DNA of 64,000 nucleotides from Chloroflexia bacterium (GTDB lineage Bacteria; Chloroflexota; Chloroflexia; QHBQ01; JADMIH01). The notes beneath the pieces are model-generated. The model saw nothing but the letters and a program-made list of their open reading frames with translations, made no database searches and had not been told where the DNA came from. Location of the stretch: NCBI GenBank assembly GCA_038203825.1, contig JBBRDO010000006.1, positions 3,760 through 67,759 on the forward strand, read 5' to 3'. Positions 33,668 through 56,112 of the stretch are shown here, in pieces. The translations under genes were made by a program, and so were the position numbers. Each line of letters begins with the position of its first letter. Within the stretch, counting starts at the first letter, position 1.

Positions 33668-33704
33668 GGGGACGGAGTCGTAAGTCGTAAGTCGCTGATC
33701 GTAA

Positions 33705-33809
33705 GTCATGCGCGGCATCCTATGACTTACGAGTCGAAAGTCATGCGCGGCATCCTATGACTTACGAGTCGTATGTCATGCGCAGCATCCTATGACTTAC
33801 GACTCGGGA
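33705..33809. repeat. 3 x 35-bp tandem repeat, each unit a hairpin AAGTCAT-gcgcggcatcct-ATGACTT
   Basis: Units start at 33705, 33740 and 33775 (gtcatgcgc(g/a)gcatcctatgacttacga(g/c)tcg). An inverted fourth copy lies at 34462-34490. Confidence 0.9.
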
Positions 33810-33849
33810 CTTACGATCTACGACTCGTATGATATAATGGAGGGTGTAT

Positions 33850-34390: not shown

Positions 34391-34400
34391 ACGAGTCGTA

Positions 34401-34454
34401 GATCGTAAGTCGCTGATCGTAAGTCGCTGATCGTAAGTCGCTGATCGTAAGTCC
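34401..34454. repeat. 14-bp tandem repeat gatcgtaagtcgct x about 4 (two heptads per unit)
   Basis: Read directly. It begins 11 nt after the stop of the zinc-ribbon gene. Confidence 0.9.
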
Positions 34455-34504
34455 CGAGTCGTAAGTCATAAGATGCCGCGCATGACTTACGACTCGGGAC
34501 TTAC
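34447..34504. terminator. Perfect 23-bp inverted repeat with a 12-nt loop between convergent genes (no U-tract)
   Basis: gtaagtcccgagtcgtaagtcat (34447-34469) and atgacttacgactcgggacttac (34482-34504) are exact reverse complements. The loop aagatgccgcgc is the reverse complement of the loop in the upstream 35-bp units, with one change. Confidence 0.6.
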
Positions 34505-34524
34505 GATCTATGACTCGCCCGGCC

Positions 34525-36545: not shown

Positions 36546-39443
36546 ATGCTGACCTTGCCTACAGGAACAGTCACGTTCCTTTACACTGACATCGAAGGTA
36601 GCACCAAACGCTGGGAGAAATCGCCGGCGCCGATGCGAGCCGCGGTTGAGCGTCATGATGCCATCTTGCGGCAGGTTATCAAGGAGAGCGGTGGGTCTGT
36701 CTTCAGAACAATGGGAGACGCCTTTTGCGCCTCTTTCGCCACAGCGCCCGAGGCCCTGGCGGCCGCGCTTGCGGCACAGCGCCTGCTCTATGCGGAGCCG
36801 TGGGACGAGCGGGTGGCGCCTATAGCGGTGCGGATGGCCTTGCACACGGGGACCGGGGAAGTGCGCGACGGCGATTATGTGGGCACGCCGCTCAACCGGG
36901 TGGCGCGGCTGCTGAGCACGGGCTACGGCGGGCAGGTGCTCGTATCTCAGCCCACCTACGACCTGGTGCGGGACGTCTTGCCGCCCGACATGCGCATGAT
37001 TGACCTGGGCGAACACCGACTGAAAGATCTTCAGCGTCCCGAGCACATCTACCAAGCGGTGGCGGCGGGCCTGCCTGCCGATTTTCCGGCGCTCAAGGCA
37101 CTCGATATCATGCCGAACAACCTGCCGGTGCAGCGCAGTCCTCTGATTGGGAGGGAGGCGGAAGTGGCAGCGGCGCAGGCCCTGTTGCTGCAGGACGACG
37201 TAAGCCTGCTCACGCTGACGGGGCCGGGCGGAGTTGGAAAGACGCGGCTGGCGTTGCAGATAGCGGCTGATGTGATCGAGCATTTCGAGGAGGGGGTTTT
37301 TTTTGTAGCGCTGCCGGCGGTCAACGAAGCCGACCTGGTGCTTTCTGCGATTGCGGAGGTTCTGGGCATCAGGGAAGCGGGTGGGCAGCCACTCCTCGAT
37401 AATCTCAAGTATTTCCTCAGAGAGAAGCAACTGCTGTTGGTGTTGGACAACTTCGAGCAAGTGCTTGACGCGGGCACGGTGCTGTCGGAGCTGTTGGAGG
37501 CGGCGCCCCGTGTGAAGGTTATGGTGACGAGCCGGGCGGCGCTCAACCTCTATTTCGAGCGACAGTTTGCCGTGCCGCCGCTGGGCCTGCCGGACGACAA
37601 GAAGGCAATCTCGGTCGAGCAGCTCAGTCAATACGAGGCGGTCCGCCTGTTCATAGACAGGGCGCGGTCGGTCAAGCGCGACTTCGCCGTCACTAACGAG
37701 AACGCGCCCGCAGTGGCCGAGATTTGCCACAGGCTGGACGGGCTGCCCCTTGCTATCGAGCTTGCAGCGGCGCGGGTGGCCATCCTGCCGCCACAGGCTA
37801 TGCTGGCCCGATTGCAGAGCAGGCTCAAGCTGCTGACGGGGGGAGCACGCGACCGGCCGGCCCGCCAGCAGACTTTGCGCGGCACGATAGACTGGAGCTA
37901 CCAGCTACTTGACGAGGGAGAGCAGATGTTGTTCCGCAGGCTGGCCGTCTTCCCCGGCAGCTTTTCACTGGACGCCGCAGAGGCCATTTGCAACGCGCCC
38001 GAGGACGTCGAAATGGCTGTGCTGGACGGGGTGATGTCGCTGATATCGAAGAGCCTGCTGCGCCAGATGGAGGAGTTGGCCGGCACATCTCGCTTCACTA
38101 TGCTCGAAACTATACGCGAGTTCGCCGACGAGAAGCTTGCCGAGAGTGGGGAGGTTGAGGCGCTGCGCACCCGGCATGCACAATACTTCGCCGACCTGTC
38201 CGAAAAGGCCGATGTGGACTCGTTCAATGTCCTGCGGCACGAGTGGGTGGCATTGCTCACAGCAGATCACGCTAACGCGCGGGCGGCTCTCGAATGGGCC
38301 CATAAGAGGGGCGACCTGGTGACGGTGATCCGGCTGGCGAGCTCTATGATGTGGTTCTGGAATATTGGTGGTTTCATGAGCGAAGGCCGTGAGTGGGCCG
38401 AAACCTCCCTCGACCGGATAGACGCGCAGGATAGTACGCACCCGGCGATTGACGAGCAATTGCACGCGAGGGCGCTGTTCGTGGCAGGGTACCTGGCTTT
38501 CATCCAGGGGGATTACAGGGACGCCGGGCTGCGGCTGGAAGATGCGATCAGGCGCCAGCGCGGGCTGGAGGACAAGCGGCTGTTGGCTTATATGCTTCAC
38601 CCCGCCGGGATGACGGCCCACTTCCAGAATAAGTTTGCCCTGGCCCGCGCCCACCTTCAGGAGAGCATTGGGTTGCTGCGCTCGTTTGGCTCGTTGTCGC
38701 AGCTGGGTTTGGCGCTGTTTTCTCTTGGAGATACTGCTCTTGCAGAGCGGAAGGACGACGAGGCCAGAGAGCATTACGAGGAGAGCCTGGAGGTTGTCGG
38801 TAAGCTGAACGACGAGTGGGCGATGGCCCTGCCTCTTACCAGCCTGGGCCGCCTGGCCTGGCTGCATGGCGATTATGAGGAGGCGTATGACCTGGTTTCG
38901 CAAGGTTTGGCCGTGCGGCGCAAGGTGGGGGACCGGTGGGAGGGCGCTATTTCGCTGGCCAGCCTGAGCGAGGTGGCCCGATGCCAGGGCAGTTTTGCCG
39001 AGGCTGCCTCGCTTGCAGAGGAGGCGCTGGGCACATTCAGGGAACTGGGCGACAGGTCGGGCGTCGCCTGGTCGCTCTATAACATGGCCTATGTGGCCTA
39101 TTACGAGGCACGCTTCAAGCAGGCGTCCCAGCTTTTCAGGGAAGCCCTCGAGTTGCGCCGGGAGCAGGACAACATCGAGGGCATTACGGTTTGCCTGGCC
39201 GGTATGGCCCAGCTGGCCGCGATGCAGGAGGAGTTTGCGCCGGCGGCTCGCCTGTTCGGTGCTGCCGAGGCGCTGTTCGAGCCTGCGGGCGCCCGCCTGT
39301 CGCCGTTTGACCGGGCCGATTTCGACCGCACCAGGGATGCCACGCGCCTGCACCTGGGCGAGGCTGACTTTCAGGGTGCCCTGTCGGAAGGCGCGAGGAT
39401 GAGCGCCGTCGATGCGGCAGCGTTTGCGCTGGGCAAGCAGTAG
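36546..39443 (+). CDS. Class III adenylate/guanylate cyclase domain, NB-ARC/AAA (STAND) NTPase and TPR array
   Basis: Cyclase metal and transition-state residues are present ([29 protein letters not shown]). Walker [13 protein letters not shown] and Walker [12 protein letters not shown]. About 450 aa of TPR-like repeats (W..AL..LG.LA...GDY.EA). Confidence 0.9.
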
Positions 39444-39921: not shown

Positions 39922-42900
39922 ATGAGCAGCGGCACAACCCAGCTCGTCGCAGCCGACAGGGATGACGCAGGGTCGACCGTGCAGACCCTCCCCTTCGACT
40001 TCTATCTGATGGGGCAGCGGTTCAACCAGTTCTCTGCCACTTCGAACGGGATGCTGGGGCTGGGCAGCACTGCAATTGGGAGCGCGGTTTACAACCTTTA
40101 TTCAGGCTCCACATCGGCCCCAACCATCTCAGCTTTCGGCGGCGACCTGAGCACCGGGGCATCGGGGTCGGTCCGGTACAAGGTCACAGGTGCCGATCCG
40201 GGCCGGGTGCTGACCGTAGAATACAACAACATGTCCCTGCTCAAAGTGTCATCACCAGGCTCAAACGATGGCACGTACCAGGTTCGGCTTTACGAGACAA
40301 CAGGCAAGATCGAGTTCGTTTACGGACCCATGACACGCAACGCGGGCACAGGTGCGCTTAACGGCCAGCAAGCAGGCATCGGCTGGGCAACGGCTAACTC
40401 AACCAACAGCCTCGTCAGTATCACAACGACCACCAATCTGGCGAGCACGACGGCACCCTTCGGCCAGGCTCTCTATGCGGTGGGGGCGGTCGCCAACCTG
40501 GACAGCCCAACAGAGGGCGCTCGCCGCACCTACTCGATGCTTCCGCCCGTGCCCACCGCCCCCACCAACCTGGGCTTCTCGGCAGTCACCCCCACGAGCA
40601 TGGACCTCAACTGGAACGACTCGCCGGACGAGGTGAGGTACGCCGTCTATCGCTCCACAGACGGCATCAACTACAGCTACTTTGGCGCTGCCGCTTCAGA
40701 CGCGACAACCTTCAGCGCCACAGGGCTAACGCCAAACACGCCCTACTGGTGGATGGTATACGCGGTCTCGGAAGGCGCACCCAGCGCAACAGCCGCCGCC
40801 GGCAGCCAATCGACCTCCCCCGCAACCAACGTCCTGTCAACCGCAGCCGGGGGAGCGTGGAGCGCCCCGGCCACCTGGGTGGGTGGCGTCGTGCCCGCCT
40901 CGAACGACATCGTCACCATCGCCGACGGGTCAACAGTCACCATTGATGCCGCGTCAACCCCCAGCGCCTACAGCGTCACCGTCGGCCAGGGCACATCGGG
41001 TATACTGGTGTTCAACACGACCACCGCTCGCACCCTCGCCATAGTACAATCGCTAACCGTCGCGCCGGGCGGCAACTTCCGGACGGGCGCCACGGGTAGC
41101 GTAAGCACACACATCGTAAGCGTAGGACAGGATGTGACCAACAACGGCACAATCGACTTCAGCACGGGCAGCGGTGCGGGGGCGGGCTTCGTCTTCACGG
41201 GCGGCTCCGACGCCACCTTCACCAACAACGGCTCGCTCGACCTGCGCAACTCCGTGGGCAGCAACGGCGGCCTGCACGTCAACAAGGGCACGGGGCAGGG
41301 CGCAGTGCTCAACTTCGTGCAGAACAGCGCGAGCAACGTCACCACGCAGGGGGCGGTCTCGCTCGGCTTCCTCACCATAGCCAATGGCACGTTCAAGCTC
41401 TCGGGCAGCGCGGCCTTCAGCAACCCCGTGTTCAACCTGGCTGCTTACACAATAGGTTCCACAGCCGCATTCTGGCTGAACAACGCCAGTGCCATAGTCC
41501 TGGGCCAGAATGGATCGCCCACCAACGCGGGCCTGCTCAGAATAAGCGCGGGCATCTTCAACGTGGGCCTGGTCACAGGCAACTCCATGGGCGCATCGGC
41601 AGGGGCGCAATTCCTGATAGAGGGCGGGGTCAGCAACTACGCCAGCAGGTTCCTCACCTCCGCCGCCGTCACCTACACCCAGAGCGGCGGCACAGTCAAC
41701 GTCGCCACCATCGACAACGGCTCAAGCTCCTCAGCCTCCTTCGGCCTGACGGGCGCGTCCAGCGTCATGAACATGTCGGGCGGCACCATCGTGCTCGTGC
41801 AGCGCAGCACCGGTGGCACGCCCCTCGACTACAACGTGCTGGGCACGCTCAACTACACAGGCGGGACGTTGCAGGTGGGCAACGGGGCCACAAGCACCAA
41901 CTTCGACTTCAGATTGAGAGGCCAGATGCCTGCTCTGCTGGTAGATAACACGGTCAACGCCAAATCTGTGCTGCTGACCGCGCAGGCCGGCATCCTGGGC
42001 AGCCTCACCCTCAACACAGGCACATTGCTCAACCTGGGCGGCTTCCTCTGCTCGATTGCCGGGGCCACCATCACCAACAACGGCACCATCACCAACACCA
42101 CCGCGGGCGGGCGCTTCGACCTCACGGGCAGCGCCCCGCAAGCCTACACAGGCAGCGGCATCATGTCGGCGGGCGGCCTCAACATAGAGCTGGACAACCC
42201 CTCCGGCCTTACCATCGATCCGGCCTCCCCCGCCATCAATGTCCTGCGGCTCAACCTCTGGAGAGGCACGATCACAAATGCCTACAAGCTAACGCTGGGC
42301 ACAGCCGGCGCGAGCTCTGCCACCATACAGGTCGGCGTCTCGGGGGCCACGGGTCCAGGAGGCTCCCTCGACAGCGCGCCCACCTTCAACGCAGGCACGG
42401 GAGGCGTCATCCTCATCTATGCGCAGGAGACAGCACCACGCACCACCGGCTTTGAAGTGCCCCCTGCCCGCATCGTGCAGAGCGTTACCCTCGCCAATAC
42501 CAACGGCGTGATCCTGGCGGGCGGCAGCCTCACCATCAACGGCACCCTCACCTTCACCGCCGGCAACATCACGACCGCGGCCAACACTGTGATCATGGGC
42601 AACTCGGCAACGGTCACGCGCACGAGCGGGCACGTCGTGGGCAACCTCAGAAAGACCTTCACAGGAGTCTCAACGAAGACCTTCGAGGTCGGCACCCCCA
42701 ACGGCTACTCGCCCGTCGCGGTCAACGTCACTGCCGGCACCTACCCTGCCACCTTCACGGCAAAAGCCACACAGGGCTCGATGCCCGCTCTCTTCGACCC
42801 CTCTAGGTCGTTGGCCCGCTACTGGACCCTCGCGGCAACGGGCATCACAGCCGACCTCACCTTCAACTACCTCGACCCCACGGACATCCCGGCAACCGCA

Positions 42901-44973
42901 AACGAGGCCAACTTCGTCATCTTCAAGTACGACGGCACCCTCGTCATGCCGGGCGGCACCGTTAATACAATTGCCAATCAAGCCACCATTACCGGCGTGA
43001 GTACCTTCTCCGACTGGTCCCTGGCCGAGCCAGCCGCCGCCAACACCCCCACCCCGATCCCAACCAACACCCCTACCTCCACACCGACCGTTACAACTGC
43101 ACCAAGCGATACAGTCACCACCGCTGCGACGCAGACCCTCACGACTACGCCAACTGAAACTCCGACGAGCTCGCCGACCTACACCGAAACCCCCACCGAT
43201 CTTCCCGCGCTAACCCCTACCTTAACGCCAACCGACACGAGCACGGCTACCGACACAGCAACGCTTATTCCAACCGGGACCCCTACAAGCACAAGCACGA
43301 ACACGGCAACCGAGACGCCGACAAAAACACCAACGTCTACGCCCACCGATGTGCCCAGCACAAACACCCCCAGCGAAACTCCAACCAGCAGCTCCACGGA
43401 AACAGACACAGCGACCGCCACTGCCACTAACACCAATACCCCGACCGAGACACCAACGAATTCACCGACCGACACTAATACCCCAACAGACACTAACACA
43501 GCTACAAACACGCCAACTGCGTCGCCAACATCTACCTACACCCCAACTCTTACGTCAACGCCAACGCCTACAAACACCAACACACCCACCAACACCCCAA
43601 GCTTAACCCCAACCCCAACAGAATCCAACACATCGACAAACACGCCGACTGACACGAACACGCCCTCTAACACTGCTACCACGACTCCGACGAACACGTC
43701 GACGTACACTGGTACACCAACCTACACTTCGACCAGCATCCCCAGCAACACCCGAACGAATACAGCGACGAGCACGAGTACCCCCACAAGCACGGCGACT
43801 GACACTTCAACAAATACGCCCAGCATAACCCCCACAAATACCGACACGGCTACGGCCAGTCCAACCATCACGTCGACTTACACCAGTACGGCGAGCCAGA
43901 CTCCTACTAACACACCAACCAACACACCAACGAACACAGACACAAGCACACCATCAAGCACGCCAACCACCATCCCGAGCAACACAGCCACAGATACCCC
44001 CACAAATAGTCCGACGAGCATCGGCACCAACACCCCTACTAACACTACGACGAACACAGTCACAAGTACGGCTACCAATACAAGTACAAATACCTTGACG
44101 CCTACGAGCACTGTGCCAACGTCCACCGACACGGCTACCGCGACCCGAACCTCTACTTCAACCGACACTCCCCCAGCTACCGCTACTCAGATGTTCACCA
44201 GTAGCCCAACGAGCACGCCTGCTGACACAACCATACCCACGGACACGCCGACCGACATACCGACGAGCACGATCACCGGCACGCCTTCAGCCACCCCGAC
44301 CGCATGCGAATTGCCGTTCGTCGACGTTGCTCCCTCCGACTGGTTCTACGAGTATGTGCAGTATCTCTACTGCCACGGGGTCATCAACGGCTATGTCACG
44401 GAGCCGCCTTGCGATGGGGGCACACCTTGCTTCAAGCCGGTGAACCCCACGACCAGGGGGCAGCTGTCCAAGATCGTGGTCCTCGCGTTCGCCTTCCCGA
44501 TAGACGTTTCCGCGGGGCCAAGCTTCGAAGATGTAGCCGAGGGAAGTACCTTCTATCCCTACATCGAGACAGCCAGGAGCCTCGGCCTGGTCAACGGCTA
44601 TGATTGCGGCAGGCTGGGCGAGCCCTGCGACCCGTACAATAGGCCATACTATCACCCCGAAAGAAACGTGACAAGAGGCCAGATCACCAAGATCGTAGTT
44701 TCCTCGGCGATCATTGCCGACCCGGTCAGTTGGACGTTGCTTGAGCCGGCAGAGAGCGCCTTCCAGGATGTCCCAGCCGGCAGCACGTTCTTCCGATTCG
44801 TGGAGACGGCCTACGCGCACGGCATCATCAATGGCTATCCATGCGGGCCGGCTCCTGCGGGCGTGTGCGTGCCACCCGACAACAAGCCTTACTTCTTGCC
44901 GAATGCGGATGTGACGCGAGCACAGATCAGCAAGATCGTATATCTCGCGAGGACAAGTTCGGCGCGCAGGTAG
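39922..44973 (+). CDS. Giant cell-surface protein: N-terminal adhesin-like domain, FN3, long Gly/Thr-rich beta-helix-like region, about 420-aa Thr/Pro linker, three C-terminal SLH domains
   Basis: FN3: [35 protein letters not shown] x3: [78 protein letters not shown]. There is no signal peptide at the annotated ATG. Confidence 0.9.
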
Positions 44974-45125
44974 CGCGCAGAGGCCAACAGAGTTCCATAA
45001 TTACTGGAATGTCCGCGCTAGTTCAGAACGTCCGGGCAGGCATTATCGTATCAAGGAACGAGCAGTATCCGGGCGTGACAAGTGATTAGCGGCGATGTAT
45101 GACTTATGACTTTGCCGAGGACAAT

Positions 45126-45395
45126 ATGAACCAACGTGCCGAGGTGGACGTGCGCGTGCGCTTGCTGCTTGCCCGGGTGCTTGAACAGGGCCCGGAGCAT
45201 GTGGGCAGCCTGCCGGAAAGCACACCGCTTTTTGGGGGCGGGTTGTCGCTCGATTCGCTGACAGGGCTTGAGCTGCTCACCGGCATAGAGCAGGAGTTCG
45301 GCGTGGACATCGCCGCCGACGACCTCAACCTTGATAGTCTGCAAACCATCGGGACGTTGGTCCACTACCTGAGCGGACGCCTGCGTAATACGTGA
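45126..45395 (+). CDS. Acyl/peptidyl carrier protein
   Basis: Phosphopantetheine attachment context GGGLSLDSLTGLELLTGIEQEFG. I prefer ATG 45126 (GAGGA upstream). The alternative start, 45099, lies in repeat-like DNA. Confidence 0.8.
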   Translation: MNQRAEVDVRVRLLLARVLEQGPEHVGSLPESTPLFGGGLSLDSLTGLELLTGIEQEFGVDIAADDLNLDSLQTIGTLVHYLSGRLRNT

Positions 45396-45410
45396 TGATG
45401 CATGAGCACG

Positions 45411-45446
45411 ACTTACGATCAGCGATTTACGATCAGCGACTTACGG
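45411..45446. repeat. 14-bp repeat ttacgatcagcga x about 2.5, the reverse complement of the 34401-34454 unit
   Basis: acttacgatcagcg atttacgatcagcg acttacgg, read directly. Confidence 0.85.
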
Positions 45447-45447
45447 C

Positions 45448-45981
45448 CTACAACTCGTCCGGCCAGAGCGACAGGTCACATACGTCACGATAGCCGCAGG
45501 CGCGGCAGCGTGCGGGCACGTCGTGGTTGCGCGCGACCTGCCACTCCTCCTGGGTGGCCGTTGTGCGTATTTGCTCCATAGCCTCCAGAAGATGTGCCCG
45601 CGTCTTGCTGTTGTAGTCCACCTTGAATGTGTTGGTGCTGTATTTGAGCAAGCCGTAGGGAGGCTTTTTGCCCTGGGTTTCTTCCAGCAACAGACAATAA
45701 GCCAGTAGCTGTAGAAGGTGCGATTCGCGCGGCTCACTGTCCGTGCGCGTGGGCTTGACCTCTACGGGAACTGGGCCGCGGGATGTGCTGACCACGTAGT
45801 CCGGAGTGCCGGTCAGCCCGTAGCGCGCCGAAAAGAGGGGCTTGCCTCTCTCCTCGATACCCGTGTCCGACTGCATGATTTTCCCTTTCGGCAATCCACT
45901 CTCCTGCCGAAGGCGCGCCGAACGAGCCAGCATAACGACCGCTAGCGCGACAAGTGCTATCGCAATAAAGACCCAGAACAT
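45448..45981 (-). CDS. Cas4/DUF83-like PD-(D/E)XK nuclease with an N-terminal TM helix (solo, no CRISPR context)
   Basis: Motifs GTPDYVV ... VEVKP (D...ExK), LLQLLAY (QxxxY) and C-terminal CRACGYRDVC (CX2CX5C). TM helix MFWVFIAIALVALAVVMLA. I prefer ATG 45981 (GGGAG RBS); the alternative is GTG 46008. Confidence 0.7.
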   Translation of the reverse strand: MFWVFIAIALVALAVVMLARSARLRQESGLPKGKIMQSDTGIEERGKPLFSARYGLTGTPDYVVSTSRGPVPVEVKPTRTDSEPRESHLLQLLAYCLLLEETQGKKPPYGLLKYSTNTFKVDYNSKTRAHLLEAMEQIRTTATQEEWQVARNHDVPARCRACGYRDVCDLSLWPDEL

Positions 45982-46079
45982 GTCTACTCCCAGGAAGCGG
46001 CCGGACACGGTCGCTTATGAGTGGCAAGCGTCACGCCAGTCGTATTTCTAGCCCCTAACCCCTCGCCACCGGTCACTGG

Positions 46080-47120
46080 TCACCCGGTCGCCACATGAAG
46101 CCAGGGCGGGTAATCGGGCAGGGGTGTCGATAGGTCGCGCTCGACGGTCACAAAGCTGTCGCCCGCAACTTTGGAGAAGCCCATCTGGCGAAAGAGCAGG
46201 CGAATGGGTAGGTTCTGCTGGTTTACCCTGTACACCGCCTTTATACCCTTCATGCCCGCGTTGACTGCCTCGGCGAGTATCCAGCGCAGCAGGGCCGCCG
46301 GGATACCCCTCCCCTCCACGCGACACGACAACATAACCAGCTCCACGAGCCACACATCCGCTGGCCAGGGGGGTTGGGTATCCACCAATGCAGCACCGAT
46401 CAGGCCGTAGTCGCCGAATCGGTCGGTCAGGCGCGCTGCCGGCATTAGCCAGCGGGGATCGCGCCAACGCTCGCGCAACTGCTCAAAGGTATAGCTGCGT
46501 CCCGTCGAGTTCAGTTGGTGCGTGCGCTCGGTGAGTTCGTGGATGCGCGGCAGGTCGGCCTCGGTCGCGGGCGCTATGGCTAGACGCATCTCGCACCAGG
46601 CCATGAAGCTCGCCCGGTCGCCTTTGAAAGTCGTCTGGGCACGTCGTCGCTCATCCTCTTGCCTGTACATACGGGCCCGCCGGGCGCTCTCCTGAGTGGA
46701 GCCAGTCGGACTGAAGGCCGGTGTGTCTATAGCTGCGGCAATCTCTTCAGGCGATAATACAAGAACCTCGGGGAGCATATACTGCACTTCGGCGCGCTCA
46801 AAGGGGCTATCATCTACGAACGCCACCGCATCAAGTCCGATGTTCAGATTGTCCGTGATGCGCCGAATCGACATACTCTTGGGTTCCCAACTCACCTGCG
46901 GCGCCACGAATAGGCCCTGTAGCGAGGGATGGGAAAGCAGGCTGTCCAGCGACGATGGATCGTTCCGGCTCGCGACACTGCTCACAATGCCACGCTTCTC
47001 TAGCGCGGCTATTATGCCAAGCATTTCGGGCTTTGGCTCCAGAACCTGCGCATCGGCCGCTTCAGCCGCTACTCCTTGCCAGAGCGTATTATCAAGATCC
47101 CAAACGACGCATTTTATCAT
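46080..47120 (-). CDS. HAD-IIIC/FkbH-like phosphatase domain fused to a GNAT-like domain
   Basis: MIKCVVWDLDNTLWQG (the DxDxT HAD motif), SRND and FVDDSPFER. The C-terminal half has a GNAT-like fold (CRVEGRGIPAALLRWILAEA). The stop TGA is embedded in GTGACC heptads (46063-46085). Confidence 0.75.
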   Translation of the reverse strand: MIKCVVWDLDNTLWQGVAAEAADAQVLEPKPEMLGIIAALEKRGIVSSVASRNDPSSLDSLLSHPSLQGLFVAPQVSWEPKSMSIRRITDNLNIGLDAVAFVDDSPFERAEVQYMLPEVLVLSPEEIAAAIDTPAFSPTGSTQESARRARMYRQEDERRRAQTTFKGDRASFMAWCEMRLAIAPATEADLPRIHELTERTHQLNSTGRSYTFEQLRERWRDPRWLMPAARLTDRFGDYGLIGAALVDTQPPWPADVWLVELVMLSCRVEGRGIPAALLRWILAEAVNAGMKGIKAVYRVNQQNLPIRLLFRQMGFSKVAGDSFVTVERDLSTPLPDYPPWLHVATG

Positions 47121-47144
47121 AGCTGACTAACCGCAGACGAGAGG

Positions 47145-47246
47145 CGAGTCGTAGATCGTAAGTCTCAGATCGTAGATCGTAAGTCATGCGCCACAGGCAA
47201 TTCGCAACATGCGACTTACGATCAGAGACCTACGATCTACGACTCG
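47145..47246. repeat. Long imperfect palindrome built from GTCGTAG/ATCGTAA heptads
   Basis: Left arm cgagtcgtagatcgtaagtctcagatcgtagatcgtaagtcatgcg (47145-47190). Right arm catgcgacttacgatcagagacctacgatctacgactcg (47208-47246). The outer 16 bp are perfect. Confidence 0.8.
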
Positions 47247-47253
47247 TCGGTCC

Positions 47254-47613
47254 CTACAGCCCCGGACCGGAGTCGCTGCCTCGAACGATGCGGCGCACGC
47301 TGGCGAACCGCGGCTTGAGGCCATTGCGAATCACTTCAAGCACCTTGTCCGTGTCCATCGGGCCGCAGGTGAATATATCTATAGCGGCGAAGCCCTCCTC
47401 CACCCAGGTGTGGATGGATATGTGGGACTCCGCCAGCAGGAGGAAACCGGTCACGCCCGGAGGGGTAAACTGGTGAAAATGGGCGTGCAAAATGGTAGCG
47501 CCGCCCGCCTCCGCCGCCCGGCAAAGCAACTCCTCAAGCGGCTCGGCCTGCGCCAGCAGAGCGGTGTCCTCCACCCACACATCATATAGCACGTGTCGAT
47601 TTATTATGTTCAT
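47254..47613 (-). CDS. speH: S-adenosylmethionine decarboxylase proenzyme (pyruvoyl-dependent, SpeH/SpeD class 1)
   Basis: Self-processing and active-site context LLLAESHISIHTWVEEGFAAIDIFTCG. Confidence 0.9.
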   Translation of the reverse strand: MNIINRHVLYDVWVEDTALLAQAEPLEELLCRAAEAGGATILHAHFHQFTPPGVTGFLLLAESHISIHTWVEEGFAAIDIFTCGPMDTDKVLEVIRNGLKPRFASVRRIVRGSDSGPGL

Positions 47614-47655
47614 TTCTATAATGTGTCTTCCCGGTTTGCGGCTCCAGTTACGCCG

Positions 47656-48147
47656 TCACTTCGATGCGCCAGGCGTTTCGATGCGTTTCATGGTTAGATG
47701 CTCGGCCTGGAAACCGAACTTGCGGTAAACGAGGCGCATGGCGGTGTTATCGACGTGCACCTTGCCTGTGATCTCTTTTATGCCCTTTTGCTCCGCATAA
47801 TCAATGCCATGTGCGAAAAGCAGATCGGCCACCGTTGCGCTTTCTGAGTGGTCCGGTCCGTGCGTCGTGGCCAGCGAGCGGAATGTTGCGTAGTGCTCTC
47901 CCGTCAGGAAGTTGGTATTGAGAGCCACCCAGAGCCAGCCCTCGATTTCGCCCGTCGCTTGATTCTCGGCTACAAACATCCCTTCGCGGTCACGCTCCAA
48001 TGCCTTTGCCAGTTTCTTGTGATGAACAGCGGGGTCAACGATGGCGTCATCGGGGAAGCTGATGCGCGCTATCTCGATCTCGAAGTCGACGATCGCGGGC
48101 AAATCGCTCTCTTGTGGTGCGCGAAGTAAATAGTTGTCTGTGGGCAT
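47656..48147 (-). CDS. GNAT-family N-acetyltransferase
   Basis: 163 aa with a typical GNAT layout and a C-terminal ...NTAMRLVYRKFGFQ motif. Confidence 0.8.
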   Translation of the reverse strand: MPTDNYLLRAPQESDLPAIVDFEIEIARISFPDDAIVDPAVHHKKLAKALERDREGMFVAENQATGEIEGWLWVALNTNFLTGEHYATFRSLATTHGPDHSESATVADLLFAHGIDYAEQKGIKEITGKVHVDNTAMRLVYRKFGFQAEHLTMKRIETPGASK

Positions 48148-48201
48148 AATCGGCTGGCGTACTTTGGATTCCCATAGTGGTGGACAATATAAGTATAACC
48201 T

Positions 48202-49473
48202 CTAAGCACGCGGTTCGCTACTACCCCCAATGTGCCTGCGCCTTACCAGCCGGAAGGTGTGCGAGTCGCAACATGGGCAACCCGCCTCTTTCAGGGCTTC
48301 GATGGTCGCAAACCGGCCGCCCGCTTCGCCGCCGACTGTCACTTCAGTCCCACACACAGTACACGCATATGTCCGGAGCATTGGGCGCAACTGCCCCGTG
48401 TATATCGGCCCTGCGTACTCCCCCTTAACTAGTGCAGCAGATTGGGTGCTCGCGCTGAGGACGTAGAGGTCGCTTACTCCGGCAAGCACACCAGCGCCCA
48501 CATACTCGTTGAAGTTGGGCACTAGCCTCTCGATTACCAGTCCCATCTCCGCTATGGCACGCTGCACCGCCACCTGCTCATCGGGCGGACGGTGGCCGAA
48601 ATGCAAGTATATGCGCCCACCGCCAGGCTTGACGGCTTCGACCGCACGAGAGAGGAACAGTTCAAGGCCGGGCAACGTGTAGGGCGGGTCGGTCGATACT
48701 GTGTCGAACGCGCCCAGCAGTTTGGCTGGCAAGGGCATGCGCACATCGTGCTGCACCGTTTCCAGGGCAACGCCTTCCTCAGAAGCTGCCTCCGTCAGGT
48801 GAAGCAGGATACGCTCGTCGGTGTCGAGGGCCACTATGCGACGTGCCAGCTTGCCGGACGGCGACAACGCTTTGCCCGCGAGAGCCAGCGCCAGTGAAAC
48901 CGAGTCGTCGTCGCCCAGTATCAGCACGTCTTTCCCCGCAAGAGCCCCATCCTCGTACATGAGGGCTGCGCGGCGCAAGTTGGTTTCTGGCGTGCAATGG
49001 CTTTGGTCGAGCGCAACGTCAACGCGGGGGTTGCTGCTGAAATGTCGCTGGAGCGCTTCCAGAACAACACGCCAAACGCCGCCAACCGGCGCGACTCCCA
49101 ACCCGCCGCACGTGGGACAAAGCACACTGCCCGAGCCCGATTCACCGGGCGACTGCAAGCCGGACGCGCTATCCGGCAAAGTGGCCCAGCCCCATTCGTC
49201 GCTCATTGCCTGTTCGGCAGAGTTGGTCAGGCGAAGGTACGGTCCCGGATCAAGCACGCCTGCTTTCTCAAGCTCGCGGCGCACTGCTGTAACCACGGGC
49301 AAGGGCAAGCGGACGAGTCGCGCAAGCGCACGCGCCGTCAGGGGCTCTGCACTCGTCAGGTGTTGCGCTCGATAGACAGTACGCAAAACCTCCTCCACAC
49401 CCGCAGCGCCCTCACGCAACTGGGAGCGCTGGGCCACGGAGTTCAGCAGGCTGTCTTTTTCTATGGGCATCAT
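48202..49473 (-). CDS. DUF43/BpsA-like aminopropyltransferase (branched-chain polyamine synthase family) with extra Cys-rich zinc-ribbon segments
   Basis: KDVLILGDDDSVSLALALAG and FDTVSTDPPYTLPG match the DUF43/BpsA signature as I recall it. CPTCGG and CTVCG...CPCC clusters are present. It is adjacent to speH. Confidence 0.7.
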   Translation of the reverse strand: MMPIEKDSLLNSVAQRSQLREGAAGVEEVLRTVYRAQHLTSAEPLTARALARLVRLPLPVVTAVRRELEKAGVLDPGPYLRLTNSAEQAMSDEWGWATLPDSASGLQSPGESGSGSVLCPTCGGLGVAPVGGVWRVVLEALQRHFSSNPRVDVALDQSHCTPETNLRRAALMYEDGALAGKDVLILGDDDSVSLALALAGKALSPSGKLARRIVALDTDERILLHLTEAASEEGVALETVQHDVRMPLPAKLLGAFDTVSTDPPYTLPGLELFLSRAVEAVKPGGGRIYLHFGHRPPDEQVAVQRAIAEMGLVIERLVPNFNEYVGAGVLAGVSDLYVLSASTQSAALVKGEYAGPIYTGQLRPMLRTYACTVCGTEVTVGGEAGGRFATIEALKEAGCPCCDSHTFRLVRRRHIGGSSEPRA

Positions 49474-49482
49474 AACTCTCGA

Positions 49483-49510
49483 AGTCGCTGATCGTAGGTC
49501 ACAGATCGTA
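49483..49510. repeat. Two copies of the 14-bp heptad-pair repeat (agtcgctgatcgta ggtcacagatcgta)
   Basis: Read directly. It lies between the bpsA-like start and the GH13 stop, followed by a GACGGAC-type tract at about 49530-49555. Confidence 0.75.
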
Positions 49511-49594
49511 AGTCGTCACGTATCACGCCATCGTCCGTCGATGAGACGATGTGTGGTATTAATGGTCCGATGGTCTACAGATTACTGTGCGTTC

Positions 49595-51052
49595 TTACTT
49601 CCCTTGCAGGACGATGGACGACCGGGGCAGGATCGCTACTTTGAACGCGCCATTGGTTATCTGATACTCGTGGCCCTTCCACACGTCTTTGAGAACAGTG
49701 CCATCCTGGAACAGTTCCCCGACAGGTATCAGGACCTCTTCCGGCAATTGGCCTTTATTGAAGGCGACCACCACTTTGTCATCAGCCTGATGACGGGCCA
49801 GGGCATAGACGTTGTCGTCGCCGTAAAGGGTCGTGTACTGGCCCGTGCGGAGGGCAGGGTGCTCACTGCGCAGTTTTATAGCGCGCTTGAAGAAGTCGCG
49901 CAACTCGCTGTCCCAGTGCGTTTCGTCCCACAGGAAAGAAGCCCGGGACAGGGGATCTTTGCCGCCCACTATTCCGACTTCGTCGCCATAATAGACGCAG
50001 GGAGCGCCCGGATATACCATCTGGAAAAGGGTGGAGAGGCAGAGTGCGCTTTTATCACCTCCCGCCAGGGTCAGGTAGCGAGCCGTGTCGTGGCTATCAA
50101 GCAGGTTCAACTGAACGGCTGTTACCTCGGGTGGGTAAAGCTGGAGCAGCGCCTCCACCTCTCTGGCGAATACGCCCGCAGGCAACGTCTTAACGGGCCA
50201 CAGGGACGAGCCTTCCAGCAGGCTCGGATCGTCGATCTTCTCTATGAAGAACTCGATACAGAGCTTGGTGAACAGGTAGTTCATTACCGCGTCGAACTGG
50301 TCGCCCTTAAGCCATCGACGGGCGTCATCCCAGATCTCGCCCACGATGTAGGCTTCGGGGTTCGCGCCTTTCACCCGTCGTCTGAACTCCTGCCAGAACG
50401 CATCGTCGTTGATTTCGGCGGGCACGTCCAGACGCCAGCCATCAATGCCGAACTCTATCCAGTGAACCGCCACATCCAGCAGGAACTCGCGAACATCGGG
50501 GGTCGAAATGTTGAACTTCGGGAGCGCGTGCAGGTTCCACCACGCGTCGTAGTTGGGCTCCCTCTGTTCATCATAGGCGTTGAGCGGCCAGCCCTTGATC
50601 CGAAACCAATCGACATAAGGCGAAAAAGTACCGTTCTCAAGGATATCGTTGAACTGGAAGAACCCGCGGCTGGCATGGTTGAACACTCCGTCGAGGATAA
50701 CCCGAATACCCCGCTTATGGGCTTCGTCCAGGAGGGTGCGCAATGCAGCGTTGCCGCCCAGAAGCGGGTCAACGCTGTAGTAGTCGTAAGTGTGGTAGCG
50801 GTGGTTGGCTGTTGACTGGAATACGGGGTTGAAATATATCGCGTTGATGCCCAGGTCAACCAGGTAGTCCAGGTGCTCAACCACGCCGATCAGGTCGCCG
50901 CCTTTGAACCCGTAGGAGGTGGGTGGGCTGTCCCATGTTTCGAGATTGCCTGGCTTGTGCAGGGTTTCGCTCTTGGCGAACCTGTCGGGGAATATCTGAT
51001 AGAAAACTGCGTTTCGTACCCACTCAGGGGTTTGAATCTCTTGTGTCGTCAT
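49595..51052 (-). CDS. GH13 alpha-amylase-family glycoside hydrolase (neopullulanase/alpha-glucosidase-like)
   Basis: FYQIFPDRF, DGVFNH, GWRLDVPAEI, GEIW and LLDSHD are the four conserved GH13 regions. Confidence 0.92.
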   Translation of the reverse strand: MTTQEIQTPEWVRNAVFYQIFPDRFAKSETLHKPGNLETWDSPPTSYGFKGGDLIGVVEHLDYLVDLGINAIYFNPVFQSTANHRYHTYDYYSVDPLLGGNAALRTLLDEAHKRGIRVILDGVFNHASRGFFQFNDILENGTFSPYVDWFRIKGWPLNAYDEQREPNYDAWWNLHALPKFNISTPDVREFLLDVAVHWIEFGIDGWRLDVPAEINDDAFWQEFRRRVKGANPEAYIVGEIWDDARRWLKGDQFDAVMNYLFTKLCIEFFIEKIDDPSLLEGSSLWPVKTLPAGVFAREVEALLQLYPPEVTAVQLNLLDSHDTARYLTLAGGDKSALCLSTLFQMVYPGAPCVYYGDEVGIVGGKDPLSRASFLWDETHWDSELRDFFKRAIKLRSEHPALRTGQYTTLYGDDNVYALARHQADDKVVVAFNKGQLPEEVLIPVGELFQDGTVLKDVWKGHEYQITNGAFKVAILPRSSIVLQGK

Positions 51053-54778: not shown

Positions 54779-56112
54779 AATGGCAATTCCAAATCCGGCT
54801 GGACGCTGTCTGCCAATGTCGCATAAGCAAGCTGTTCGCGACCCGAGGTTAATAGATGCTGAAGGACAGCGCCGCCACACAGGGCCAGCAAGACCAGTTC
54901 GGTGCCGACGGTAGCAATGGCCGCGCCGGTAACCCCCAGAGCAGGAATAAGAGCCAGGTTCATCGCGAGGTTCACGAACAGCGAGACCAGGGTGAAGATG
55001 GCATACAAGCGTGGCTTGTCAACGGCGATCAGTGTGTGAGTAAGTCCGTAGTTCAGATACATAGGCACGCAAGCGAACGCCAGCACCACGAGGACAGGAG
55101 CAGAGGCAAGATACGGCGCACCGTAGAGCAGCATAAGTAGTGGCGTTGCGAACAGCGCCAGGGCAAATGTAGCCAGCAGGCCGAGGCCTAACAGGGCGAG
55201 ATGGGTCTGCCTGATCACAACGCGCATCGAGGCCGGAGTGTGCGCAGCCTGCGACAACATAGGGAAGACAGCGGCCAACAGGACACCTGGTAGGATCAGG
55301 CTTGGCTCGAACAGTTTGTAAGCGACATTGTACACGGCAAGTGCCTCGGTACCCACTATGGGCGGGATTAAGAGATTGTCCAGACGAAAAGAAACGATGC
55401 TAAAGACTATGCCAATGCCGACTGCCGTTGGCTGGCCCATTGAAGCGCGCCAGTAAGCCCAGTCAGTTCGCCAAACAGGACGAACATAACGTAATAGAAG
55501 CCTGTAGCCTAGCAGCACTGCCACGGCCATCGACACGAAGCTTGCGACCGCGAGGCCCCATACTCCGGCGCCCCAGAGCAACAGTCCGACACCAAGCAGA
55601 AGGTTGAGCAACCTCGCCACGAAGCCCAACCGCGCTTCCCAACCCAACCTGCCGAACGCACGAAAACAATAGGACAGGTACTCCAGCGTCGTGCCAAGTA
55701 GCATCGCAATCCCGACCAGCAGGAGAGCGCCACGATTGCCTACGGGTTCCAGGAGCACAGCGCCAATTATTAGCAGCATGGCCAGCACGGAGAGGGCACC
55801 CTTGATCACCAGCCCGCCGCCAACCAACCGTCCCGCTAGTTGCGGATCTGTTATGAGCACATTGCCGGCGCTATCATGCTCAACGAGGCGCGAGAGCTCT
55901 CGCTGAACATAGAGTTGCAGGCCGAAGTCGGCGACCTGTGCCAGCATATACCCTATACTGAGGGCAAAGGTGAAATCACCGAAATCAGACTGTGCCAGGT
56001 TCCGCGCCGCGACCCACAGCAAAGCATACTGAAAAACCCTGCCTGCAAGGTCAGACCCCAGTTTCCAAAGCGCCCCGCGCCGACCTATTGTGCGAGCAAA
56101 ATTGGAAGTCAC
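54775..56112 (-). CDS. Oligosaccharide flippase (Wzx/MOP superfamily)
   Basis: 445 aa with about 12-14 TM helices. The N-terminus ...LGSDLAGRVFQYALLWVAARNL is typical of polysaccharide biosynthesis (Polysacc_synt) proteins. Confidence 0.8.
   Translation of the reverse strand: MTSNFARTIGRRGALWKLGSDLAGRVFQYALLWVAARNLAQSDFGDFTFALSIGYMLAQVADFGLQLYVQRELSRLVEHDSAGNVLITDPQLAGRLVGGGLVIKGALSVLAMLLIIGAVLLEPVGNRGALLLVGIAMLLGTTLEYLSYCFRAFGRLGWEARLGFVARLLNLLLGVGLLLWGAGVWGLAVASFVSMAVAVLLGYRLLLRYVRPVWRTDWAYWRASMGQPTAVGIGIVFSIVSFRLDNLLIPPIVGTEALAVYNVAYKLFEPSLILPGVLLAAVFPMLSQAAHTPASMRVVIRQTHLALLGLGLLATFALALFATPLLMLLYGAPYLASAPVLVVLAFACVPMYLNYGLTHTLIAVDKPRLYAIFTLVSLFVNLAMNLALIPALGVTGAAIATVGTELVLLALCGGAVLQHLLTSGREQLAYATLADSVQPDLELPL

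Follow-up and report, generated by a model that had tools for sequence, protein, structure and literature searches.

What would a bacterium make with a set of genes that couples aminopropyl transfer to the loading of a carrier protein? The question is raised by a locus in a 64,000-nucleotide stretch of a Chloroflexia genome (contig JBBRDO010000006.1, positions 3,760 to 67,759; hereafter, the window), where the open reading frame (ORF) map and profile searches identified six proteins encoded within 45099-49473: an acyl carrier protein (ACP), a Cas4-like nuclease, an FkbH-domain protein, the S-adenosylmethionine (SAM) decarboxylase SpeH, a small GNAT acyltransferase, and a BpsA-family aminopropyltransferase-like protein. 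An earlier reading of this DNA, made without database searches (the sequence-only reading), had grouped the same six genes and proposed that they yield an ACP-dependent modified polyamine. All six were found at the positions it gave and each of its family assignments held. Five of the six proteins constitute a self-contained cassette; the Cas4-like nuclease, kept only in close Chloroflexia, lies outside it, so the cluster stood for five genes and not for the sixth. The idea of an ACP-dependent modified polyamine is supported, and three further results fit it: a BpsA-GNAT fusion, a nested series of two-, three-, and five-gene loci, and the loss of the coenzyme A (CoA)-binding loop from the GNAT. 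Judging from the sequences, we lean toward a cassette product that is an N-acylated, aminopropyl-extended polyamine, its three-carbon acyl unit delivered via the ACP.

In the pathway we propose, SpeH would decarboxylate SAM to decarboxylated S-adenosylmethionine (dcSAM), and the BpsA-family enzyme would use dcSAM to aminopropylate an amine common in cells, such as putrescine, spermidine, or agmatine, giving a product that may be linear or branched. In parallel, a glycolytic three-carbon acyl unit would be captured on the conserved Cys266 of the FkbH-domain protein. By family precedent, this unit would be D-glyceryl from 1,3-bisphosphoglycerate, the 3-phosphate being taken off by the HAD half, and FkbH would then hand it to the phosphopantetheine arm of the dedicated ACP. 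Finally, the small GNAT would take the acyl-S-ACP as donor and join its acyl group to one of the primary amines of the polyamine in an amide bond, which would set holo-ACP free again. The identities of the acceptor and of the acyl group are inferred, as are the sequence of the two transfers and the physiological role, which is possibly that of a less cationic, hydrophilic polyamine derivative such as a stress protectant or a secreted metabolite.

Linkage of the five genes across genomes

Using the BpsA-like protein as query, a survey restricted to one genome per species returned 39 loci. These were typed by tblastn with the window's proteins, and loci with at least 2.5 kb upstream and at least 3 kb downstream were considered flank-adequate. 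In 29 of 29 flank-adequate genome loci, SpeH, GNAT, FkbH, and ACP were all encoded beside the BpsA-like gene. These loci came from Chloroflexia metagenome-assembled genomes (MAGs), one Dormibacterota MAG, approximately 22 Streptomyces species, and Salinactinospora. Gene order was variable and the flanks were unrelated among five-gene loci. Crossiella equi (L041) and a 1.2-Mb metagenome contig encoded the same five genes in other orders with unrelated flanks, as did the Dormibacterota genome and further metagenome contigs. Outside the window, the ACP gene directly followed FkbH on the same strand in every flank-adequate five-gene locus examined. In the Crossiella locus and in L046, the BpsA, GNAT, FkbH, and ACP genes overlap by four nucleotides, which points to translational coupling. 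An all-against-all comparison of neighboring ORFs in 23 dereplicated five-gene loci revealed no sixth conserved gene family; neighbors were lineage-specific or chance paralogs only (e.g., an ABC ATPase and a response regulator), and the Cas4-like, GH13, Udk, and GT4 neighbors were common to close Chloroflexia only.

Thus, the co-conservation check that the sequence-only reading had suggested found the five genes together in Chloroflexia, Dormibacterota, and Actinomycetota, shuffled in order and set among unrelated flanks. That reading had also allowed that the FkbH/ACP pair might belong to a separate conserved module elsewhere; in every sampled locus, the pair adjoined the genes for the BpsA-like protein and the GNAT.

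In 19 of 20 Streptomyces loci, BpsA-like and GNAT form one stop-free reading frame, joined by a variable Pro/Ala/Thr-rich linker of 60 to 90 residues (L016-L038, e.g., L028 at 9746-11842), and Pfam identified both domains in the single ORF of Streptomyces canus (L028). The fusion points to aminopropylation and acylation as consecutive steps. In the Streptomyces loci, transcription of SpeH is divergent. In S. canus, the ACP gene is directly followed by a tyrosinase/MelC1 (melanin) operon; Pfam showed this operon in L028 only, and it was treated as unrelated. Culturable, genetically tractable carriers of the cassette include Streptomyces acidiscabies ATCC 49003, S. canus NA07887, and Streptomyces phaeoluteigriseus DSM 41896, with Streptomyces aurantiogriseus JCM 4346, C. 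equi, and Salinactinospora qingdaonensis JCM 17137 as further culturable carriers.

That two unrelated modules, SpeH/BpsA and FkbH/ACP/GNAT, merely happen to be adjacent is hardly credible. The window itself would hint at it, its ACP being encoded on the opposite strand with an unrelated gene between it and FkbH, but this orientation is a local inversion unique to this genome, and the 29 of 29 genome loci in three phyla with varied order and flanks, the fusion, and the overlapping stop and start codons all argue for a functional unit.

We scrutinized the wider family by looking up gene contexts and by scanning metagenomes with a profile of the family, and found the cassette in nested forms. 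SpeH and the BpsA-like protein, their genes often overlapping, were encoded at 10 flank-adequate loci (e.g., L056, L057, L100, and L107), while SpeH, BpsA-like, and GNAT were encoded at three (L045, on a contig labelled Rhodopseudomonas palustris, L048, and L055). All five genes were present at 8 loci of the metagenome set, the 29 of the genome set, and 3 of the context look-ups (e.g., L062, L067, and L098), and among typed loci FkbH and ACP never occurred without GNAT. BpsA-like proteins of two-gene loci were up to approximately 60% identical to those of five-gene loci. We infer that SpeH is the only partner the aminopropyltransferase needs, the acyl module being an optional addition. On a Chloroflexia metagenome contig (L047, 7001-8994; 46% identity), a BpsA-like gene occupies the same slot as in the window, after GH13 and before the Cas4-like gene, without GNAT, SpeH, FkbH, or ACP; hence, these four genes appear to have been gained or lost as one block.

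In the three-gene loci L045 (3650-5805) and L048, SpeH is divergent from the BpsA-like gene, which is followed by a GNAT with a canonical CoA loop, and in L045 the genes adjoin an RND efflux system. The L045-type variant may represent a candidate N-acetyl-polyamine module.

Catalytic proteins and their predicted chemistry

The five cassette proteins belong to recognized families and keep their catalytic motifs intact. The BpsA-like protein (48202-49473, minus strand) was assigned to PF01861 (2e-48), with matches to the solved BpsA structure 5xnc by phmmer (4e-28) and to BpsA by Foldseek (2e-23). It consists of an N-terminal winged-helix-like domain, a Rossmann core with GDDD and TDPPY motifs, and a C-terminal four-Cys zinc ribbon. 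Its AlphaFold2 (AF2) model had a mean predicted local distance difference test score (pLDDT) of 84.9, and Foldseek retrieved the solved BpsA structures 5xnc, 6j27, and 2qm3 at approximately 2e-23 over approximately 373 columns, the next folds, generic methyltransferases, being at 5e-10. A profile of 18 family members aligned to the BpsA of Thermococcus kodakarensis (Tk-BpsA; 5xnc) from the N-terminal domain via the first CxxC to FNEY (E 1e-49). The sequence-only reading had recognized the family from GDDD and DPPYT, and this was borne out by PF01861, phmmer, and Foldseek. GDDD and TDPPYT are invariant, GDDD in the 19-sequence cassette set and G186 and D188 in a wider 18-protein alignment, and the invariant residues comprise C118, C121, D188, D261, P263, Y323, C370, C373, C398, and C401.

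In Tk-BpsA, GDDD (G157-D160) positions the aminopropyl group of dcSAM, the acceptor is activated by D225, E259, Y290, and Y316, and the reaction follows a ping-pong mechanism in which acidic residues clustered in the flexible C-terminus (E339 and D342-E345) are the carrier of the aminopropyl group (PMC12979288). Counterparts of D225 (TDPPY) and Y290 (FNEY) are kept in the window's protein, while Y316 lies beyond the alignable region. The protein had also been credited with extra zinc ribbons. The C-terminal CxxC...GCxxC is indeed an addition, but the first CxxC (about C119/C122) is common to the solved archaeal and Thermus BpsA, and since the profile alignment to Tk-BpsA spans it, this first Cys pair is a family trait. 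The C-terminal ribbon was also found in most bacterial relatives with SpeH alone, and it is thus a mark of a bacterial clade and not of the acyl pathway; as a marker of acyl-linked enzymes it was dropped for the same reason. A defense-system reading was likewise dropped, PADLOC having given only a generic methyltransferase-fold match (mad2) for the BpsA-like protein and none for FkbH or GNAT.

The N-terminal winged-helix-like domain, weak MarR-type Pfam matches in relatives, and the conserved zinc ribbon could alternatively indicate that the BpsA-like protein modifies nucleic acid, protein, or a cell-envelope polymer, the cassette as a whole decorating a polymer; the polysaccharide genes that adjoin the cassette in Chloroflexia (GT4, Wzy_C, and flippase) would fit such a role. 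However, the N-terminal domain and the first CxxC are common to biochemically proven BpsA, the polysaccharide neighbors are kept in close Chloroflexia only, and profile searches gave no membrane or secretion family match for the five core proteins, although no transmembrane prediction was made. A macromolecular target is thus very improbable.

SpeH (47254-47613, minus strand) is a class 1 pyruvoyl SAM decarboxylase proenzyme (TIGR03330, 2.8e-34; PF02675, 1.2e-32), scoring 117.8 bits against the TIGR03330 equivalog cut-off of 75.65, as the sequence-only reading had called it from AESHISIHTW. Self-cleavage is predicted between E62 and S63 (AE|SHISIHTW), and SHxSxHTW, including the self-processing Ser of (E/A)SH(I/L)SxHTW, is invariant across cassette SpeH orthologs.

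The FkbH-domain protein (46080-47120, minus strand) combines an N-terminal HAD-IIIC phosphatase with a C-terminal GNAT-fold acyl-transfer half and is the predicted glyceryl loader of the ACP. It matched TIGR01686 (3.6e-70) at 236.7 bits against a cut-off of 146.65, over residues 2-316 of 346. In its AF2 model (pLDDT 90.4), Foldseek related the N-terminal half to the HAD phosphatase 3slr and the C-terminal half to GNAT folds (RimI, phosphinothricin acetyltransferase, and SpeG; template modelling scores 0.64-0.78), so that profile and structure searches agreed with the HAD-IIIC/GNAT-like fusion described earlier. The HAD phosphatase motifs (DxDxT nucleophile, Ser/Thr, Lys, and DD) are present. 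Across 27 homologs, W7-D8-L9-D10-x-T12, S48, V102-D103, D233-R-F-G236, and S265-C266-R267-x-x-G270-R-G272 are invariant and K81 is nearly so; C266 we take, from the biochemistry of OzmB and FkbH, to be the site of the acyl-S-enzyme intermediate. In characterized FkbH systems, a D-glyceryl unit from 1,3-bisphosphoglycerate is loaded on an ACP (PMC7489565). The stand-alone ACP of the window (45126-45395, plus strand; PF00550, 5.5e-9) has 89 residues, or 98 if translated from 45099; the start at 45126 is more likely, because the similarity to L043 extends only from 45117 and ATG 45126 has a GAGGA Shine-Dalgarno sequence in front of it. Its phosphopantetheine-site Ser (LDSL, 45255-45257) is invariant in 19 orthologs.

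The small GNAT N-acyltransferase (47656-48147, minus strand) is the predicted enzyme for transfer of the acyl group from the ACP to an amine of the polyamine. Its profile matches were weak and to generic GNAT models only (Acetyltransf_1/_3, ~1e-5), and a sequence search of the PDB returned only 1vkc (6e-4), which is uninformative on the acceptor. Neither profile nor PDB sequence searches gave a significant match to SpeG-type models, and the Pfam profile search gave no match to the Autoinducer-synthase family. GNATs bind the CoA pyrophosphate by a glycine-rich beta4-alpha3 loop, Q/R-x-x-G-x-G/A. A census with the pattern [QR]xxGx[GA]/RGxG found this canonical loop in 0 of 60 GNATs of five-gene cassettes versus 3 of 3 of flank-adequate GNAT-only loci. 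On contigs too short to type, 6 of 9 GNATs keep the loop, and the other 3 resemble five-gene-type sequences. Representative loop sequences are QRGSGLS, QRGGGVV, and FRGTGYA where FkbH/ACP are lacking, versus PDRAAIGE, PERSEVGE, and DNRADVAE where they are present; the window GNAT reads DHSESATVAD (THGPDHSESATVAD) at this position. This pattern would result if the acyl donor had changed from a CoA thioester to one on a carrier protein, a correlative argument drawn from alignments.

The loop census bears directly on another explanation, in which the cassette product is an ordinary polyamine, branched or linear. The GNAT would then be a CoA-dependent N-acetyltransferase of polyamines, akin to SpeG, SSAT, or PaiA, with a role in homeostasis or export, and FkbH/ACP would serve another acceptor or step. 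In one variant, a possibility, the GNAT-fold half of FkbH itself transfers the glyceryl unit. Loci with SpeH, BpsA-like, and GNAT but without FkbH/ACP do exist, their GNATs having a CoA-type loop, and the C-terminal half of FkbH is a GNAT fold. Yet FkbH/ACP never occurred without the GNAT, the cassette holds no other candidate off-loading enzyme, the loop is changed exactly where FkbH/ACP are present (the 0 of 60 versus 3 of 3 above), and GNAT, FkbH, and ACP are translationally coupled. We therefore regard a CoA-dependent acetyltransferase of the five-gene loci as unlikely.

Several points weigh against an N-acylated, aminopropyl-extended polyamine. Every chemical step rests on homology and gene context, and the product is known only as a prediction. 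The position of Tk-BpsA E259 is a Pro (in HRPP) in the BpsA-like protein, and where Tk-BpsA has its C-terminal acidic aminopropyl-carrier cluster, this protein has the conserved CxxC...GCxxC zinc ribbon and a basic tail; acceptor and regiochemistry may thus differ from those of BpsA, and from sequence a branched product is not established for this enzyme. The five-gene-type GNATs of L046 and L077 are intermediate, with a loop still partly glycine-rich, and even with its changed loop, the GNAT may accept a CoA thioester. Off-loading of the ACP could fall to the C-terminal GNAT-fold half of FkbH. FkbH-type domains elsewhere take different acyl units, and the unit of this clade is assigned by precedent only. 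A rough neighbor-joining tree of the BpsA core mixes cassette types and is too rough to order gains and losses, and the window's own ACP has been detached from the operon by the inversion.

The missing E259 and acidic tail also favor a pathway through a shared activated intermediate. Here, the GNAT would acylate the amine of dcSAM in a LuxI-like manner and the BpsA-like enzyme would then transfer an N-acyl-aminopropyl group, or the BpsA-like enzyme would aminopropylate the ACP-tethered glyceryl unit, which would then be cyclized or released. The BpsA-GNAT fusion suggests substrate hand-over, and GNAT-like folds that combine acyl-ACP with SAM are known in the LuxI family. Carboxylate oxygens accept the aminopropyl group in Tk-BpsA (PMC12979288). 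However, the BpsA-like relatives at approximately 60% identity reside in SpeH-only two-gene operons, so the acyl module is not needed; the GNAT gave no Autoinducer-synthase match, and the chemistry is without precedent. This route is accordingly quite improbable.

Returning to the amide-forming pathway, we put forward in its most specific version, tentatively, that the FkbH/ACP pair feeds glyceryl not to a polyketide synthase (PKS) but to a GNAT switched from CoA to carrier-protein donors. No earlier pathway of this kind may be known. The resulting N-glyceroyl aminopropyl-polyamines would be a new class in soil Chloroflexota, Dormibacterota, and Actinomycetota, formed via a bacterial BpsA clade with a mechanism unlike that of the archaeal enzyme, the zinc ribbon taking the place of the acidic tail. 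In the literature, BpsA-type enzymes figure almost exclusively as a means by which hyperthermophiles adapt to heat (PMC12979288). Here, the family occurs in soil-derived lineages with its own dcSAM supply and, in many of them, with a dedicated acylation module. If true, this pathway would represent a new branch of bacterial polyamine metabolism, a use of FkbH/ACP glyceryl chemistry outside polyketide assembly, and a natural change of GNAT donor from CoA to carrier protein. The cassette is compact, has no other conserved partner, and is widespread, occurring also in culturable Streptomyces, and is thus directly testable.

Local arrangement in the window

Blastn of the window against L043, L044, and L001 delimited a 0.87-kb segment (45117-45984), containing the ACP and the Cas4-like gene, that is inverted relative to every relative examined. 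Both flanks are collinear, and the FkbH proteins of L043 and L044 are approximately 90% identical to that of the window. The breakpoints lie within 45015-45116 and 45985-46066, each beside a heptamer tandem repeat (TATGACT x2 at 45098-45112 and CACCGGT x3 at 46067-46089). A search for inverted repeats as the cause of the inversion gave short, chance-level pairs only, with no long inverted repeat flanking the segment. If not an artifact of assembly, the inversion is very recent. The convergent ACP reported by the sequence-only reading is therefore present in the window but is not a trait of the cassette: the gene is convergent because 45117-45984 is inverted, a derived state of this genome or assembly.

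The Cas4-like PD-(D/E)XK nuclease (45448-46008, minus strand; TIGR00372, 2e-20; PADLOC Cas4, 5.5e-21) has a hydrophobic N-terminus, a predicted membrane helix. Its gene was found beside the cassette in 6 of 23 dereplicated loci, all close Chloroflexia, and beside the BpsA-like gene in L047. No cas gene was present among its Pfam-examined neighbors, a window-wide search for cas genes not having been made, and the tandem-repeat scan detected no CRISPR-type array. The nuclease gene is a bystander, sharing the inverted segment with that of the ACP.

The SpeH-FkbH intergenic region (47136-47250) is filled by a dispersed, heptamer-based repeat of 13 to 14 nucleotides (TTACGATCAGCGA and variants), which had 15 matches in the window with up to two mismatches versus 1.06 expected. 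Copies are located at 33692-33823, 34394-34515, 45402-45460, 47136-47250, 49485-49511, and 54972-54984; three cassette intergenic gaps carry it, the copies at 49485-49511 lying just upstream of the BpsA-like start, and its positions are kept in L043. A REP/STRR-like element and an operator are both possible identities for it. The window contains many further tandem arrays of heptamers, including TCACTTA, CAGTGAC, ATCACTC, and GTGATAA. A promoter and terminator scan of 44800-49800 gave nothing above shuffled expectation, and an Rfam scan of 44000-50500 (E ≤ 0.1) gave no match, revealing neither a riboswitch nor a leader.

Downstream, minus-strand genes encode a GH13 amylase, a uridine kinase, a GT4 glycosyltransferase, a Wzy_C protein, and a flippase. 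Upstream (39922-44973) is a 1683-residue Thr/Pro-rich SLH-domain protein of secreted type, with a G8-like N-terminal region, a low-complexity stretch of approximately 500 residues (Thr/Pro/Ser/Asn), and C-terminal SLH domains; owing to this gene, base composition is strongly skewed at 42-44 kb (GC skew -0.35, AT skew +0.38). At 36546-39443, a 965-residue STAND-type protein has an adenylate/guanylate cyclase domain at its N-terminus, together with NB-ARC/NACHT and TPR repeats.

Comparison with known systems

The open-access literature contained no paper or preprint combining FkbH with polyamines, SAM decarboxylase, or BpsA (subscription-only literature lay outside the search), no open-access paper bringing together BpsA, branched-chain polyamines, and Streptomyces, and no relevant one on aminopropyltransferase and ACP clusters in Streptomyces or on glyceroyl polyamines. 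The terms Streptomyces, Chloroflex, and "gene cluster" are absent from a 2026 review of BpsA (PMC12979288).

Like the N4-bis(aminopropyl)spermidine synthase BpsA (EC 2.5.1.128) of T. kodakarensis and Thermus thermophilus, the cassette enzyme is a PF01861 protein with an N-terminal CxxC domain and a Rossmann core, retains GDDD and the counterparts of D225 and Y290, and is encoded by a gene linked to a pyruvoyl SAM decarboxylase (SpeH/SpeD). Unlike BpsA, it has Pro in place of E259, a zinc ribbon in place of the acidic cluster, and a coupling to GNAT, FkbH, and ACP, and its product need not be branched; the cassette carriers come from soil samples or are soil-type actinomycetes.

The FkbH/ACP pair resembles those of polyketide modules (the methoxymalonyl-ACP genes FkbG-K and the tetronate glycerate-utilization operon) in having a full-length FkbH with DxDxT, the SCR Cys, and a GNAT-like half, together with a stand-alone ACP. 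In these pathways, FkbH is accompanied by FkbI/FkbK-type dehydrogenases and the FkbG O-methyltransferase, or by a FabH-like enzyme, an acyltransferase, and a dehydratase, plus a PKS (PMC7489565). By contrast, the companion genes are absent from the window, which contains no PKS, ketosynthase, FabH, dehydrogenase, or O-methyltransferase gene, and no further family is conserved around the 23 dereplicated relatives. Since both known homes of FkbH/ACP need companion enzymes that are absent here, a third, amide-forming use is suggested; the GNAT is the only candidate consumer of the acyl-ACP, which argues for amide formation and not for C-C bond or extender-unit synthesis.

As in polyamine N-acetyltransferases (SpeG, SSAT, PaiA, and BltD), a small GNAT is genetically tied to polyamine metabolism, and the three-gene relatives with a CoA-type loop may be true acetyltransferases. 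The five-gene GNATs differ in lacking the CoA pyrophosphate loop, in having a dedicated acyl-ACP supply, and in lacking a SpeG-type match. GNAT-fold enzymes with acyl-ACP donors include the N-acyl amino acid synthase FeeM (with its ACP, FeeL), LuxI-type acyl-homoserine lactone synthases, and OlsB. These share with the predicted pathway a GNAT-type fold, an acyl group taken from a carrier protein, and formation of an amide with an amine; they have no detectable sequence relationship to the cassette GNAT, and they draw on fatty acyl-ACP of primary metabolism, not on a dedicated FkbH-loaded ACP. All parts of the cassette come from known families; their combination and the predicted product are new.

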